Positions 5,800 through 46,563 of a stretch of 51,330 nucleotides of DNA are shown here, in pieces (the stretch's first letter is position 1; every line of letters begins with the position of its first letter). The notes beneath the pieces are model-generated. The model ran no database searches and had not been told where the DNA came from. It saw only the letters and a list, made by a program, of their open reading frames with translations. The position numbers and the translations under genes were made by a program. Origin of the DNA: Minisyncoccia bacterium (GTDB taxonomy: Bacteria; Patescibacteriota; Minisyncoccia; Phycocordibacterales; UBA918); contig CAXRCZ010000006.1 of the NCBI GenBank assembly GCA_964229335.1, positions 1 through 51,330 on the forward strand, read 5' to 3'.

Positions 5800-5848
5800 A
5801 GTTCAATTCTTACACAAGCAAAGCAGTTTGTTTGCTTCCATCCCACTG
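5800..5848 (-). repeat. tmRNA 3' trailer: split antisense copy of the tmRNA T-arm/acceptor 3' end
   Basis: Transcript reads CAGTGG-GATGG + hairpin AAGCAAA-CAAACTGC-TTTGCTT + gtgta-AGAATTGAACT, versus true antisense CAGTGGAGATGG|GGAGAATCGAACT. Confidence 0.6.
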
Positions 5849-5854
5849 CAAAAC

Positions 5855-5874
5855 AAAAAGCGCCAAACGGCGCT
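5855..5874 (-). terminator. Intrinsic terminator after tmRNA
   Basis: AGCGCC-GTTT-GGCGCT hairpin followed by TTTT on the minus strand. Confidence 0.65.
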
Positions 5875-5887
5875 AATGTTTTAACAG

Positions 5888-6279
5888 TGGAGATGGGGAG
5901 AATCGAACTCCCGTCCGAGTTAGGGTGTGAAGGTGAGTCTACGTGTGTAGGACATCCTTTGATTTAAAGTACGTAGCTAGAGGATGAGCAAAACACTACG
6001 CACTCGAGTTGTCACAAATCTCGCTTACCTATGACAACGGCATAGGTAAGCCAAGTCTCATGGCTATTCTACTCCAACTAGGGTATGAGACGTTTGCTAG
6101 CGGAGCATCGCAGCGGCGAGCGAATGGTTACGCTACAGCGGGTGCGAACCCAAACGAGCGAACGTATGGGCTTGGTACTGCTTTGTTTGCAGATACAAAA
6201 TGGAACCTTTTTACGAATTGATTGCCAATTTCGACACGCACACATCCGACACGACTAACCGTCGATGCCTGGCATCCCC
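5888..6279 (-). ncRNA. ssrA: tmRNA (one-piece)
   Basis: 5' GGGGATG pairs with 3' CATCTCC-A with G3:U wobble; T-arm GGGAG-TTCGATT-CTCCC; tag frame 6190-6128 reads ANKAVPSPYVRSFGFAPAVA*; smpB nearby. Confidence 0.96.
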
Positions 6280-9546: not shown

Positions 9547-9619
9547 CCGCCAATAGCTCAGTTGGTAGAGCGCAGAGCTTATACCTCTGTGGTCCTTGGT
9601 TCGAGTCCAAGTTGGCGGA
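9547..9619 (+). tRNA. tRNA-Ile (anticodon UAU), no encoded CCA
   Basis: Cloverleaf CCGCCAA/TTGGCGG; anticodon arm CAGAG-CTTATAC-CTCTG; T-arm CTTGG-TTCGAGT-CCAAG. Confidence 0.92.
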
Positions 9620-9728
9620 CAGTATTAGTTGTAATATTCAGCTTGTTTACAACTGCACCCGAGGCGGTGTACTGTGAATAGTGGTGCACCTTTCGCGCCG
9701 ACTTTCGAGCCAGAGAAGGAGATTGCTT

Positions 9729-42921: not shown

Positions 42922-43256
42922 AGCGGGGTGGAGGAGTGGTACCTCGGGAGGCTCATAGAAATGTGACCTATTACAGTAATGTAGTACGGAAAAATCTTCG
43001 AAATTGCTGGAAAACCGTAAGAGCTTTACTTGCCACAACGTGACCTGAGAGGGTGAACGTGACGGCTTCAAAAAAGTAAAGATTCGGCAATCGGCAGCCA
43101 AGCCCTTTATCTAGTTGGATAGACGGAAGGTTCAGAGACTATAATGAAGAGTTCCATGCGCGTAGTTTGCGTATGGAACATGGGATAGTCCATGCCCTTG
43201 TGAAAACATGGGATCAGCAGAACCTCCAGACCCCGGTTCGAGTCCGGGCCCCGCAA
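42922..43256 (+). tRNA. Initiator tRNA-fMet (CAU) split by group I intron; exons 42922-42956 and 43221-43256
   Basis: Spliced cloverleaf: AGCGGGG/CCCCGCA with 1:72 mismatch, A11:U24, anticodon arm GGAGG-CTCAT|AA-CCTCC, T-arm CCCGG-TTCGAGT-CCGGG. Confidence 0.9.
42957..43220 (+). mobile_element. Group I self-splicing intron (264 nt, no ORF) at tRNA position 36/37
   Basis: 5' exon ends in U, intron ends in G; IGS GTGA (42963) pairs TCAT; P AAATTGCTGGAAA (43001), Q AATCGGCAGC (43089), R GTTCAGAGACTATA (43130), S GATAGTCC (43184); P7 GACTA/TAGTC. Confidence 0.93.
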
Positions 43257-43260
43257 CAAA

Positions 43261-43306: not shown

Positions 43307-43457
43307 TGCGGTGGCCAGAGAGCCAACTGCTTGGCTCTTGTCGGACTCGAACCAGCGGAGCCATAATTTTTGCACCTACCCTGGTGCATAAATAGGCGAG
43401 CTCGGGGAGGAAGTTCTTATGAGCGTAGCGAATTAGAAACTTGACCCTCGAGTCCGG
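43307..43457 (+). repeat. tRNA-fMet 3' trailer: split antisense plus sense copy of tRNA 3' end
   Basis: TGCGGtGGC + hairpin 43316-43340 + TCGGACTCGAACC; sense copy TCGAGTCCGG at 43448-43457. Confidence 0.75.
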
Positions 43458-43546
43458 TTCTTACAGAACCAGTACACCTTTTGGAAAACAAGTTTCTCAT
43501 AAGGTCTTGCGCCAGTCTCCCAGACTGGCTCACCTCGAAACAAAAA

Positions 43547-43609: not shown

Positions 43610-44701
43610 ATGAAAAAAATAATCATTATTCTGTTGATTCTGGCGCTCGGTGCTGGAGTCATTTGGTACCTTACTAATAACAATACTACCGAAGACGGAA
43701 CTCAACCTGAGCAAATTAATATTGAAGAATTAGTAGAAGTTAATCCTGTCTCCCACGCTTCATTCGTAATGACGCTTGATCGTACGGTCATCTACAACGA
43801 TCCGGTAGGAGACTTAGAATTGTATAGTGCGTATCCACCACCAGACGTAGTGTTGCTGAGTGACATTGATCCAGATCACCTTGATGTAGAAACATTATCA
43901 GAATTAGTTAATGAAGATACGCCAATCATCGCACCAGCGGCAGTGGCCGAGCAACTCCCGACTAACCTATCAAGTGAAATAATCGTCCTTGCTAATGGAG
44001 ACACTACCAAGGTGCAAGGGGTGACAGTGACTGCTATTCCAATGTACAACACTGGTTCTGGAGATGATGTGTATCATCCCGAAGGTCGAGGTAACGGCTA
44101 CCTGCTAGAGCGTAGTGACGCTCGTGTATATATCGCTGGAGACACAGAAGAGACTCCAGAAATGAGAGATTTAGAGGACATTGATGTTGCCTTTGTGCCG
44201 ATGAATCTTCCATACACGATGAGTGTTGAGGGTGCAGCTGATGCTGTACTGGAATTTGCTCCACGAGTAGTCTATCCATACCACTATCGCGGCACTGATG
44301 GTCTGAGTGATGTCGAACAATTTAAGACCTTAGTAGAGCAAGCGAACGCTGCAATAGAAGTGGTACTAGGAGATTGGTATCCAGAGGAGTCTACAGCTTC
44401 TGAGACCGAAAATGATTCAGATGGAGAAAATGTAACGTTCGATATTTCGGGCACTAACTTTGCGTTTGATGTGACTGAAATGAGAGTTAGTGAAGGAGAT
44501 ACAGTTACTGTTAATTTCACTAGTGAAAGCGGATTTCATGATTGGGTAGTTGATGAATTCGGTGCCGCTACTGAGCAAGTAGATACTGGCGGAACCACCT
44601 CAGTGACCTTTGTGGCTGATAGAGCTGGAACGTATGAGTACTATTGTTCTGTTGGTAGTCATCGCGACCGCGGTATGGTCGGTACACTGATTGTCGAGTA
44701 A
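43610..44701 (+). CDS. Membrane-anchored MBL-fold hydrolase fused to cupredoxin domain
   Basis: N-terminal TM; HASF, DIDPDH, YIAGDT, YPYHY (MBL fold); HDW...YYCSVGSHRDRGM type-1 copper site. Confidence 0.85.
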   Translation: MKKIIIILLILALGAGVIWYLTNNNTTEDGTQPEQINIEELVEVNPVSHASFVMTLDRTVIYNDPVGDLELYSAYPPPDVVLLSDIDPDHLDVETLSELVNEDTPIIAPAAVAEQLPTNLSSEIIVLANGDTTKVQGVTVTAIPMYNTGSGDDVYHPEGRGNGYLLERSDARVYIAGDTEETPEMRDLEDIDVAFVPMNLPYTMSVEGAADAVLEFAPRVVYPYHYRGTDGLSDVEQFKTLVEQANAAIEVVLGDWYPEESTASETENDSDGENVTFDISGTNFAFDVTEMRVSEGDTVTVNFTSESGFHDWVVDEFGAATEQVDTGGTTSVTFVADRAGTYEYYCSVGSHRDRGMVGTLIVE

Positions 44702-44773: not shown

Positions 44774-45451
44774 ATGCAATGTGTAATTTTAGCGGCGGGA
44801 AAAGGAACCCGCTTACGACCTCTTACTGAAACCACTCCAAAACCTCTAGTAAAAGTAGCCGGAAAGCCACTGCTGGATCATATTGTTGAATCCTTACCGA
44901 GCGCAGTCAATGAGTTGATTATTGTTACTGGTTATCTTGAAGAAAACATAAAAGAGCACTGCGGCGAGGTCTTCCACGGACGGCAGGTTACGTATGTCCA
45001 TCAAGCCGAACAAAAAGGAACCGCTCATGCACTGTGGTTGTGCAAGGACTTATTACAAGGTCGTTTCTTGTTTATGTTTGCCGATGATTTGCACGGCAAA
45101 GATGATATCGCTCGCGTTACTTCGTATTCGCGAGCGATGTTGACGTATCAAACTGATACGCCAGAACGGTTTGGTATCGTGGTACGTCATCCGGATGGGA
45201 CTCTGGCAGAGATAATAGAAAAACCTCAACACCCACCATCAAACCTGGCTTCGACTGGAGTCATGGTGCTTGATACTAATTTATTTAACTATGAAGTCAG
45301 AAAGGAAATAAATGGTGAATTTTTCTTGACTGACGTGATTCAGGAATATGCTAAAGAATATCCCATGGCAGTGGTTGAACAAAGATTGTGGCTACCAATT
45401 GGTTATCCAGAAGATATTGAGAAAGCAGAACAGGTATTGAATCGCCTTTAG
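44774..45451 (+). CDS. Sugar-phosphate nucleotidyltransferase family protein
   Basis: ILAAGKGTRLRPLT..TPKPL, Q..QKGTAHA, EKP. Confidence 0.9.
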   Translation: MQCVILAAGKGTRLRPLTETTPKPLVKVAGKPLLDHIVESLPSAVNELIIVTGYLEENIKEHCGEVFHGRQVTYVHQAEQKGTAHALWLCKDLLQGRFLFMFADDLHGKDDIARVTSYSRAMLTYQTDTPERFGIVVRHPDGTLAEIIEKPQHPPSNLASTGVMVLDTNLFNYEVRKEINGEFFLTDVIQEYAKEYPMAVVEQRLWLPIGYPEDIEKAEQVLNRL

Positions 45452-45481
45452 AAGTGTAGTACCCTTGTTGCCACACCAATT

Positions 45482-45555
45482 GCTGACGTAGCTCAGTTGG
45501 TTAGAGCGTAGGACTCATAAACCTAAGGTCGGAGGTTCAATTCCTCCCGTCAGCA
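45482..45555 (+). tRNA. tRNA-Met (CAU), probably elongator, no encoded CCA
   Basis: GCTGACG/CGTCAGC acceptor, loop CTCATAA, T-arm GGAGG-TTCAATT-CCTCC; Ile2 identity cannot be fully excluded. Confidence 0.85.
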
Positions 45556-45560
45556 CAAAG

Positions 45561-45584
45561 AAAACCGCCCATCAGGCGGTTTTT
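45561..45584 (+). terminator. Terminator-like hairpin after tRNA-Met
   Basis: AAAACCGCC-CATCA-GGCGGTTTTT. Confidence 0.75.
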
Positions 45585-45587
45585 GAC

Positions 45588-45713
45588 TGCTGACGGCGCA
45601 TTTATCTGGGAGATAAATGCGGAGGAATTGAAAAGGTTGCCAGCATTCTGCGAGCTTGCGAAGCAGAAGGCGACAACCTGTACTGAACATGTAATGTTCA
45701 GTTCCTCCCGTCA
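45588..45713 (+). repeat. tRNA-Met 3' trailer: split antisense plus sense copy of tRNA 3' end
   Basis: TGCTGACGG + hairpin 45597-45621 + GAGGAATTGAA = exact 20-nt antisense; sense copy GTTCAgTTCCTCCCGTCA at 45696-45713 (17/18). Confidence 0.85.
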
Positions 45714-45736
45714 CTAAATCATGCTACACTTTCCAT

Positions 45737-45811
45737 ATGCTATACATTACAAACAATCATAGTCGGCGGCGAAGCAAGACTCTCTTTGAGCTCGCTTCTG
45801 AATGTTTGTAG
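45737..45811 (+). CDS. Possible leaderless 24-aa leader peptide MLYITNNHSRRRSKTLFELASECL
   Basis: TGcTACACT -10 six nt before ATG; terminator hairpin at 45833-45859. Confidence 0.3.
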   Translation: MLYITNNHSRRRSKTLFELASECL

Positions 45812-45886
45812 AATACACTCCTCGAATTTTTTAAGCGGTCTCAAATGAGACCGCTTTTTGTGTAAGTGCAATGAAAGGAATTTGTA

Positions 45887-46105
45887 ATGAAAGTCTTTGA
45901 ACTCTCAAACCAAGCAGAAGCGAAAGCTGAGACTTGGATCGAGCAACACAAAAAGGAAAAATGCGGGATGTTTGATCGCCCAATGAGGGGAGAAATCACT
46001 GAAAGCCCGATTACATACACTTTTACCGATAGTAGTATTGGCACTCTTGCTTCAGTGTCGTGTGAATGTGGTAAATCAGAGCTTATAAATTTTGAAGATT
46101 TGTAA
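45887..46105 (+). CDS. Small hypothetical protein, phage-like, Cys-containing
   Basis: 72 aa, AAAGGA SD, TYTFT.SSIG...CECG; terminator at 46118-46147. Confidence 0.6.
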   Translation: MKVFELSNQAEAKAETWIEQHKKEKCGMFDRPMRGEITESPITYTFTDSSIGTLASVSCECGKSELINFEDL

Positions 46106-46156
46106 GCTTAACCAATACACTGGCTCGCGTTTGCGCGGGCCAGTTTTTCATAATTA

Positions 46157-46320
46157 GACGAGGTTCGGTCACAAGTCCAAATCAAAGATTTGGCTCGCGA
46201 CCCCGACTCAGCGACAAGCCCTCGCTCCGCTCGTCTTGTATACCGCCTCCGTCTTTCGAGTCCCGTCTGGCGCGTACATAGCAAAGTCCCGGTCTTTGCA
46301 GACCGGGACCTAACTATGTA
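46157..46320 (-). repeat. tRNA-Asp 3' trailer with perfect 20-nt antisense copy of tRNA 3' end
   Basis: TTCGAGTCCCGTCTGGCGCG on + strand at 46255-46274 is the inverted repeat of 46323-46342; nested GTCCCGGTCT/AGACCGGGAC hairpin. Confidence 0.85.
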
Positions 46321-46322
46321 TG

Positions 46323-46396
46323 CGCGCCAGACGGGACTCGAACCCGCAGCCTCCCGCGTGACAGGCGGGTGCTCTAACCAATTGAGCTACCAGCGC
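46323..46396 (-). tRNA. tRNA-Asp (GUC), no encoded CCA
   Basis: GCGCTGG/CTGGCGC-G73, anticodon arm CCCGC-CTGTCAC-GCGGG. Confidence 0.95.
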
Positions 46397-46487
46397 AAAT
46401 GTGGGAAAGAGTATAGCCGGTTTACATATTTTTCGCAATAGCTGGAAAAATAAAAGGTGATTTGGTATGCTGTGACGGCTTACAAAT

Positions 46488-46563
46488 GCCATCTTAGCTC
46501 AGTCGGTAGAGCGCATCCATGGTAAGGATGAGGTCCGCGGTTCAATCCCGCGAGATGGCTCCA
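46488..46563 (+). tRNA. tRNA-Thr (GGU), CCA encoded
   Basis: GCCATCT/AGATGGC, anticodon arm CATCC-ATGGTAA-GGATG. Confidence 0.95.

Follow-up and report, generated by a model that had tools for sequence, protein, structure and literature searches.

The described systems closest to the locus analysed here are the tRNA-linked repeats (TLRs) of Escherichia coli. There are 22 of them at ten loci, and their function is not known according to the sections of PMC8144298 used here. The same source reports that TLR RNAs arise when transcription reads through the terminator, that they are processed and bind Hfq and CsrA, and that three rRNA-linked TLRs give processed sRNAs (PMC8144298). The rttR processing and stringent-response claims are repeated in a preprint (10.1101/2024.07.17.603846); the rttR starvation claim is reported as retracted (PMC8144298). 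An engineered IS608, of the IS200/IS605 group, recognises 12/17-nt targets (PMC5934647).

The window, that is, the whole stretch of 51,330 nucleotides that was analysed, comes from a Minisyncoccia genome of 741 kb in 13 contigs. The trailer of its tRNA-Met gene (Table 1) is one copy of a gene-less folded element of about 125-180 nt and not a peculiarity of tRNA-Met. The family layout is a gene tail, a terminator, an antisense arm, a conserved folded core, and a second copy of the tail, and the 161-nt unit in the window has no ORF. As in the TLR class, this element is found downstream of a tRNA gene; the family also occurs at protein genes. For the identical end of 18-19 bp in the TLR class, the window's element has 15 nt with one mismatch, truncated, while most copies in relatives reach positions 73-74. 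The element is single at tRNA-Met, compared with one to five copies per locus in the TLR class, and stacks are found in relatives.

Table 1. Features of the tRNA-Met locus, in window coordinates.
Feature	Position	Strand	Basis or remark
tRNA-Met(CAT), likely elongator; target gene, no encoded CCA	45482..45555	+	ARAGORN; Rfam RF00005
Putative 161-nt unit: tRNA tail from C56, terminator, split antisense, core	45538..45698	+	junction 55/56
H1, terminator-like 9-bp hairpin; A-tract 5', T-tract 3'	45561..45583	+	
Antisense arm A, complementary to tRNA 65-73 (45547-45555)	45588..45596	+	counterparts in relatives
H2 hairpin, 11 bp, TGGGA-type loop; splits antisense at tRNA 64/65; recurring module	45597..45621	+	
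Antisense arm B, complementary to tRNA 54-64 (45536-45546); proposed guide	45622..45632	+	
Core stem AGGTTG/CAACCT around variable arm H3 (45643-45671)	45634..45679	+	covariation
GTACTG linker and H4 hairpin AACAT-GTA-ATGTT, ending at junction	45680..45698	+	conserved; covaries
Displaced copy of tRNA C56-A70, one mismatch	45699..45713	+	sequence comparison

The earlier note on this DNA, which was made from the letters alone, described 45588-45596 and 45622-45632 as together the exact reverse complement of 45536-45555, with a perfect 11-bp hairpin between them (45597-45621), and both descriptions are correct. The arms, 9 + 11 nt, are the exact complement of tRNA-Met positions 54-73, split at 64/65, and 0 of 1000 dinucleotide shuffles of the 160-nt trailer reach the split-antisense score of 20 (maximum 14, mean 9.1). 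The fold of the trailer has z = -5.2 as RNA and -7.6 as DNA. Arm B covers 2 nt upstream of the junction, arm A is optional in the family, and H1 is scored as terminator-like on the minus strand only. A 668-nt contig from the public run X1, which is possibly the source sample, equals 45527-46194 with 0 differences, so the trailer is not an assembly artefact. The runs X2, X21, and X19 do not reach the trailer, and there is no coverage of it in the single RNA run; runs with a small share were left out. No Rfam 15 family matched the trailer at its gathering score, and E-value scans gave generic hairpin matches only. A self-cleaving ribozyme was rejected as a candidate, since the known consensus does not fit.

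The note had also seen a sense copy of the tRNA end at 45696-45713. This does match 45535-45552 at 17 of 18 positions, but 45696-45698 are part of hairpin H4, so that the real duplication is 45699-45713. The displaced copy stops 3 nt before the discriminator and has no terminator after it, whereas in the closest relative (L002) the right copy is full length and the terminator is duplicated. Thus, with its truncated right copy, the window's unit looks slightly decayed. The AGGTTG/CAACCT stem drawn in the note covaries, but the CC...GG pairing drawn with it is not the conserved one. The part that is most conserved in the family, GTACTG with the hairpin AACAT-GTA-ATGTT (45680-45698), was absent from the note. 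The core at 45634..45679 scores 84 bits with the alignment-based model R1.

An elongator identity of this tRNA-Met(CAT) is likely, given G1-C72 and the presence of a separate initiator-type tRNA-Met and a tRNA-Ile(TAT) in the window. The anticodon loop of the initiator-type gene (42922-43257, +) is interrupted by a group I intron of 264 nt (Rfam RF00028, 67.6 bits), and the gene has its own antisense/core/sense trailer, of another core type. Abutting that trailer is a second copy of the tRNA-Met-type core (43457-43508, -; 28 bits) with an H2 hairpin. The ORF at 43613-44701 (+) encodes a predicted N-terminal anchor and a metallo-beta-lactamase-fold domain fused to a cupredoxin domain. The tRNA-Ile at 9547-9620 has a TAT anticodon, which is rare in bacteria, and the tRNAs of the genome include no recognisable Ile-type CAT tRNA.

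A model search finds the core at 10 distinct places in the host genome, 3 of them at protein genes (11 matches, one being the mirror on the palindromic contig C7). Exact antisense to positions 54-61 within 130 nt is present at 10 of 37 distinct tRNA loci, a count that takes in other core types too, versus 0 of 1090 non-cognate pairs, and a sense copy of the tail is present at 11 of 37 versus 8 of 1326 non-cognate pairings. The middle of the host-genome tRNA trailers is made up of several unrelated cores. The tRNA-Asp trailer (46160-46342, -) has a 20-nt perfect antisense, a 26-bp hairpin, and a decayed right copy; its core differs from that of tRNA-Met and is common to the Ala-GGC, Arg-TCG, Arg-CCT, and Ser-GGA trailers. 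Behind the tmRNA gene (5887-6279), at about 5820-5886 (-), is a decayed remnant versus the tmRNA 3' end, in which a terminator, arm A, an H2-like hairpin, and arm B can be seen and the core is absent. Upstream versions, with copies of the tRNA 5' end, H2, and the core, and some with antisense to positions of about 15-32, are found at G000:C4:97340-97500 and C4:32500-32600, on C7 (5' of Gln-TTG and Tyr), and on C1 (5' of Ser-TGA). Entry close to the D loop and close to the anticodon loop seems to occur as well (L127, L148, L192, Ile-GAT). Contig C7 of the host genome (G000), 126,716 nt, is a perfect palindrome, equal to its own reverse complement. This is almost surely an assembly artefact, through which ten tRNAs appear twice and the values for genome size and contamination are too high.

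For the core of the tRNA-Met type, 82 tRNA-linked copies were collected, at 29 tRNA types and in units of 123-202 nt. Across the order, 67 of 101 genomes are positive with the core model, with up to 39 copies each. The core pattern is present in 37 of 61 relatives, and the reversed control gave 2 matches. A search of 150 genomes across the phylum, with stricter filters and 29 candidates scored per genome, gave 0 positives, which is a weak negative. Titled records with the structured core are mostly from Kaiserbacteria, Nomurabacteria, Paceibacteria, and other Patescibacteria bins; the few under other labels are possibly mis-binned. For 68 of the 82 copies, the nearest core neighbour belongs to a different tRNA and a different genome, and clustering of core similarity is significant neither by genome (p = 0.08) nor by tRNA (p = 0.10).

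The structural alignment comprises 58 sequences from the 60 copies that passed length and right-copy filters. In this alignment, 94.5% of cells are paired and double changes occur at 27 of 29 pairs, a level reached by 0 of 500 shuffles, with the structure drawn from the same 58 sequences and the relatives not independent of one another. In H4, 5 of 5 pairs covary and pairing is 100%; with any loop of 3-5 nt allowed, the GTA loop is found in 81 of 82 copies, some of whose loci were fetched with loop-containing queries. Short H3 arms have a GNA loop in 20 of 38 cases. A loose test reports a hairpin close to arm B for 57 of the 82 copies; many of these hairpins are a clear H2 at 64/65, and others are the terminator. 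Covarying stems can come from template-switch correction without selection. Even if it were a passive repeat, this is an uncatalogued structured family present in two thirds of one bacterial order.

The antisense arm tracks its target. In a set of 76 copies, positions 54-61 are Watson-Crick paired with the arm in 580 of 608 cells, and pairing ends at 53. For positions 59-64 in the same set, the mean is 4.9 of 6 with the cognate tRNA versus 3.5 with others. Pairing at 54-56 in this set arises partly by construction, because the set required GA near the core, and in a set picked without any antisense requirement it is found in 79 of 82 copies. At positions where the left tail is not identical to the right one, the arm agrees with the left tail in 10 of 11 cases. 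The right copy agrees with the cognate tRNA at positions 57, 59, and 60 in 70/72, 70/71, and 70/71 cases. In all three tRNA-Met cases with an ATC T-loop (3/3), the right copy has TT and the arm has GAT. Elongator tRNA-Met genes with A at 54 (ATC T-loop) were seen at L007, L008, L009, L012, L016, L020, L021, L023, and L029. Outside the host genome, AC, AG, GG, or GT is a frequent end of H4, yet the arm still has AA against T54-T55. These variable ends place the junction at 55/56, sometimes one base later, and imply that the arm spans two chromosomal bases outside the unit. The arm also follows codon changes in a protein-gene target.

In a rival explanation, the unit is a single-stranded att site on whose fold a tyrosine recombinase acts, as with CTX phage or integron cassettes. 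The antisense and the carried tail would then form the duplex att, and the arm would be its bottom strand and not a guide; one strand exchange would integrate the unit, and replication would resolve it. Such a site predicts the sense-antisense-sense layout and the stacks, the arm does match the carried tail best and ends sharply at 53/54, at the T-loop edge, and the host genome has one Xer-like recombinase. However, tyrosine recombinases need sequence-specific sites, and the targets here are 29 tRNA tails and the codons of rplK. Furthermore, the junction at 55/56 is in mid-loop, and the two final bases of the arm agree with chromosomal sequence and not with the element end that would lie opposite them in a circle (7 + 3 tRNA cases, and rplK). 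We regard this explanation as quite unlikely.

Wobble pairs give information on the folding strand. Read on the sense strand, there are 44 G-T versus 15 A-C wobbles, so the sense strand is the one that folds. Nearest-neighbour energies do not favour the sense strand, either as DNA (42 versus 68) or as RNA (41 versus 71). This strand bias of the wobbles is one of three points against the idea that the antisense has no guide function and is a by-product of fold-back copying or template switching around a hairpin-rich repeat, later palindrome-corrected. The other two are the fixed 2-nt overlap upstream of the junction and the split at 64/65 by a hairpin with a conserved loop, which recurs across tRNAs and for which two copying events would be needed. 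Copying would explain the perfect local match without a reprogramming step, and near-perfect variable hairpins do occur throughout these trailers; on balance, we judge this origin to be decidedly improbable.

The earlier note remarked that, at the DNA level, the sense copy resembles a target duplication around a tiny insert, and proposed a comparison with close relatives for an empty site. This view is supported by the fixed junction, by the patchy presence at the orthologous tRNA-Met, by tandem stacking, and by the recurrence of the core at rplK as well as at other tRNAs. The trailer is conserved in relatives, but its presence is patchy: among 29 elongator tRNA-Met loci, which are the best matches of a search, this core type was seen at 9, remnants or a different core at 5, and no match by the exact test at the other 15. 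Tandem stacks of units occur at L050, L057, L130, L184, and other loci. The duplication extends at least 40 nt past position 60, terminator included, in 9 of 82 copies. The patchy presence and the stacked units, together with stacked rplK units that have different tails, suggest mobility between genomes. The window's locus also carries the signature by which genomic islands are found in tRNA genes, an intact tDNA with a displaced fragment on the same strand. A tRNA with a downstream 3' fragment is the island signature, and a copy that breaks 3 nt before the discriminator resembles the 'damaged' fragments described there (PMC4383910). The unit could on these grounds be the remnant of an integrase island (attL/attR) with its interior deleted, but this is largely refuted by the identical core at 29 tRNA types and at protein genes, and by the antisense arm, the uniform size, the covarying structure, and the lack of an integrase, so that only a very slight chance is left to it.

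A second contig from X1, from a related strain or species, differs from the window by 20 differences and 2 gaps, none of them in the arms, the core stem, or the linker. Its 9 H2 substitutions all keep pairing (three Watson-Crick swaps and two wobbles, with pairs assigned by hand), and one-sided stem changes give G-T on the sense strand. This contig joins tRNA-Asp within about 60 letters, at a joint of 85% likeness that is a hint only, and thus appears to be without the 72-aa ORF and the Asp element. Neither a joint skipping the 161-nt unit nor the joint of a single-stranded circle was found in the assembled contigs of four runs. In the window, the stretch 45714-46105 (+), towards which the Met and Asp trailers converge, comprises a structured 173-nt leader, without a match in the genome or the compared loci, and a 72-aa ORF for which Pfam gave no match. 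In relatives, the spacer between Met and Asp ranges from about 160 to 1500 nt.

The element is not restricted to RNA genes. In the host genome, the core is present at the rplK stop, where the tail is duplicated and the antisense is 11 nt long. The best BLAST matches from 121 genomes of the genus gave 26 rplK ends, and the element is at the stop of 8 of these (5 found by script, 3 by eye). The exact runs of the arm against its own codons are 11, 4, 8, 8, 12, 8, 12, and 8, so that 7 of 8 are at least 8, and the run of 4 is an 8-nt arm with one wobble. In the controls, the mean run is 4.8 for non-cognate pairs, and runs of 3-7 are found at 18 empty loci. The displaced rplK tails keep the in-frame stop and differ mainly at third codon positions, and at two loci (L374, L388) a second unit is stacked, which differs in its tail and has an arm of its own. 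Two further copies in the host genome are at the starts of genes which we take, from their motifs, to be a GH1 gene and msrA. When remnant and intact starts are compared, 7 of 9 third positions differ (one fully changed codon left out) and the leaders differ, the GH1 comparison being by eye. These 5'-type copies have no recognisable guide. We read the tails at protein genes as having probably arrived from other genomes, because of the third-position differences and the stacked rplK units with different tails.

We suggest, with a rough probability of 0.55, that the family is a non-autonomous, guide-bearing insertion element, probably of single-stranded DNA, that depends on an enzyme from elsewhere. 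In this mechanism, the folded single-stranded unit would pair its antisense arm across the target site, and a circular single-stranded intermediate would be joined at the junction by the outside enzyme. The carried tail would then restore the gene while the old tail is pushed downstream, and repeated entry would give stacked units. The broader proposal, that a protein-less element is programmed by a DNA guide of 11-20 nt for any gene end, pairs across the cut, swaps in its own tail so that the gene stays intact, and moves between genomes with the help of a host or visiting enzyme, is put forward tentatively, as possible and less than probable.

The trailer might instead be a functional RNA, with read-through of H1 giving a structured RNA from tRNA 3' processing, or with the arm misfolding and down-regulating the pre-tRNA. 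The element is always on the sense strand of its gene, the related X1 contig has compensatory changes, and the TLR RNAs of E. coli are transcribed and processed, as for RtT and RrB (PMC8144298). In the fold model, the acceptor stem is displaced by arm A once synthesis has reached 45596. The earlier note went further and proposed a two-state fold in which the antisense pairs with either the tRNA or the copy. This is geometrically possible, but the antisense:tRNA state (-103.5 kcal/mol) is favoured by about 11 kcal/mol over the cloverleaf with antisense:copy pairing (-92.4), in a model that leaves out tRNA tertiary contacts and modifications, and the antisense lies behind a terminator. The pairing probability of antisense with copy is 0.0 in the full-length ensemble. 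Thus, the modelled fold is one-sided and not bistable, and reading through would leave the tRNA misfolded, with no toggling, unless the transcript were first cut or stopped at H1. The same arm and core sit at the rplK stop codon, and the core at protein-gene starts, so a role in tRNA processing is not the general purpose of the family. The 15 orthologous tRNA-Met loci without a match and the 34 of 101 order genomes without any copy also argue against a functional RNA, as do the triloops in place of GNRA or UNCG tetraloops. Overall, we think an RNA function rather unlikely.

Triloops bear on the choice of polymer as well. In the GCNNNGC series, as presented in the sections of PMC13037366 used here, DNA mini-hairpins form with GNA triloops only, and the stability of an RNA counterpart, r(GCGAAAGC), falls far short of that of the DNA form. 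The stability of such mini-hairpins depends on the closing pair (PMC3201870), and in H4 this is T-A in 90 of 112 cases, not the C-G of the most stable DNA mini-hairpins. By this analogy, the triloops would favour DNA as the folded polymer only mildly.

No recombining enzyme was found in host-genome gene searches, among element neighbours, or in an order-wide RAYT comparison. Besides the Xer-like recombinase, the host genome has one RAYT-like Y1 gene and three GIY-YIG matches; its only PF00589 gene is on another contig than the tRNA-Met element, and neither RT nor IS110 was found in it. RAYT was rejected as the enzyme, as it is present in 41 of 67 element-positive versus 23 of 34 element-negative genomes (Fisher p = 0.66, hand-counted), and there is no association at genus level (24/37 versus 12/24, hand count). 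The single-contig genome G232 has 18 element copies and no RAYT with the query used. Palindromes flanking RAYT differ from the core; by eye, the most that they have in common with it is AGGTT/AACCT, at 4 of the 28 Y1 loci listed. A cognate Y1 HUH gene, flanked by the core hairpins or co-occurring with them, was looked for and not found. RAYT-like genes (L071, 1240-1275 and 1940-1980; L209-L231) are flanked by short genome-specific palindromes, often over the stop codon. The IS200 beside two copies in G036 is an independent insertion, since its third copy is without the element. No recurring recombinase beside elements was seen among the top 22 of 295 clusters from 370 neighbouring ORFs, which are housekeeping genes as judged by eye. 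A phage carrier was also rejected: the 3 viral 16-mer matches are due to chance, with the structure absent, and no phage copy was found with a longer pattern or BLAST.

If the arm is a guide, this would be a long-guide programmable insertion system without a protein of its own, in genomes under 1 Mb, and gene ends, including the last codons of ribosomal protein L11, would be replaced between lineages. Element tails can mimic att sites in island-finding, and several element matches lie at contig ends. The guide reading also offers a testable origin for the E. coli TLRs, which sit in the widely used rrnB terminator (PMC8144298).

No published description of this family was found in the literature searched, mostly non-subscription main texts. 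Several known systems share some of its properties. In IS110, the bridge RNA has a guide that covers the 2-nt core and the right target flank. The element differs in having no left guide and no donor loop, and the host genome has no IS110 DEDD recombinase; the AGGTT beside the arm is constant across targets and paired internally, and a left and right guide pair of the bridge-RNA kind was not found. The attP of CTX phage and the attC of integrons are, like the element, single-stranded folded recombination substrates that give stacked units. Their sites (dif or attI/attC) are fixed and their recombinase is known, whereas the paired arm of the element changes with each target. IS200/IS605 insertion makes no duplication. 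IS608 and the REP/RAYT systems resemble the element in their folded single-stranded DNA ends and in target choice by pairing with element DNA, but the natural guides of IS608 are 4 nt, and the element has no linked transposase. Genomic islands in tRNA and tmRNA genes (Islander, PMC4383910) share with it a restored gene with a displaced 3' or 5' fragment, a T-loop subsite, and tandem arrays. The islands of that database are at least 2 kb and have a tyrosine integrase (PMC4383910), whereas the element is 161 nt, without an integrase, and has an antisense arm and one core for many targets, including protein genes.

The closest likeness is to the TLR class, which includes RtT/RttR (Rfam RF00391) and RrA/B/F. 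The TLRs of E. coli MG1655 have the same order of gene tail, short antisense, triloop-hairpin core, and sense tail copy, and they too occur in tandem. Their antisense has 10 nt in the tyr repeats; at lysQ it is 8 nt long and directed to positions 54-61, in the other lys units it is 5 nt, and the rrnB unit has no clear antisense. Their cores have GAA, GCA, GTA, or GGA triloop hairpins, and the lysQ unit has its terminator duplicated too. The TLR copy starts at 58/59 and that of the element at 56, and the TLRs have neither a split arm nor H2. The account of TLRs in the cited sections of PMC8144298 makes no mention of an antisense arm, protein-gene targets, or movement between genomes. The RtT model RF00391 has no match at E<=10 in 45400-46500 and none at E<=1 in the genome, and model R1 has no match in the E. 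coli units (best E 2.2). Since neither sequences nor models match in either direction, the likeness is one of layout: the element would work like a TLR in its arrangement, and common descent is not supported by homology search. If the guide reading is true, it would extend to the TLRs, which have lacked an explanation since 1978, as a distant case of one design.
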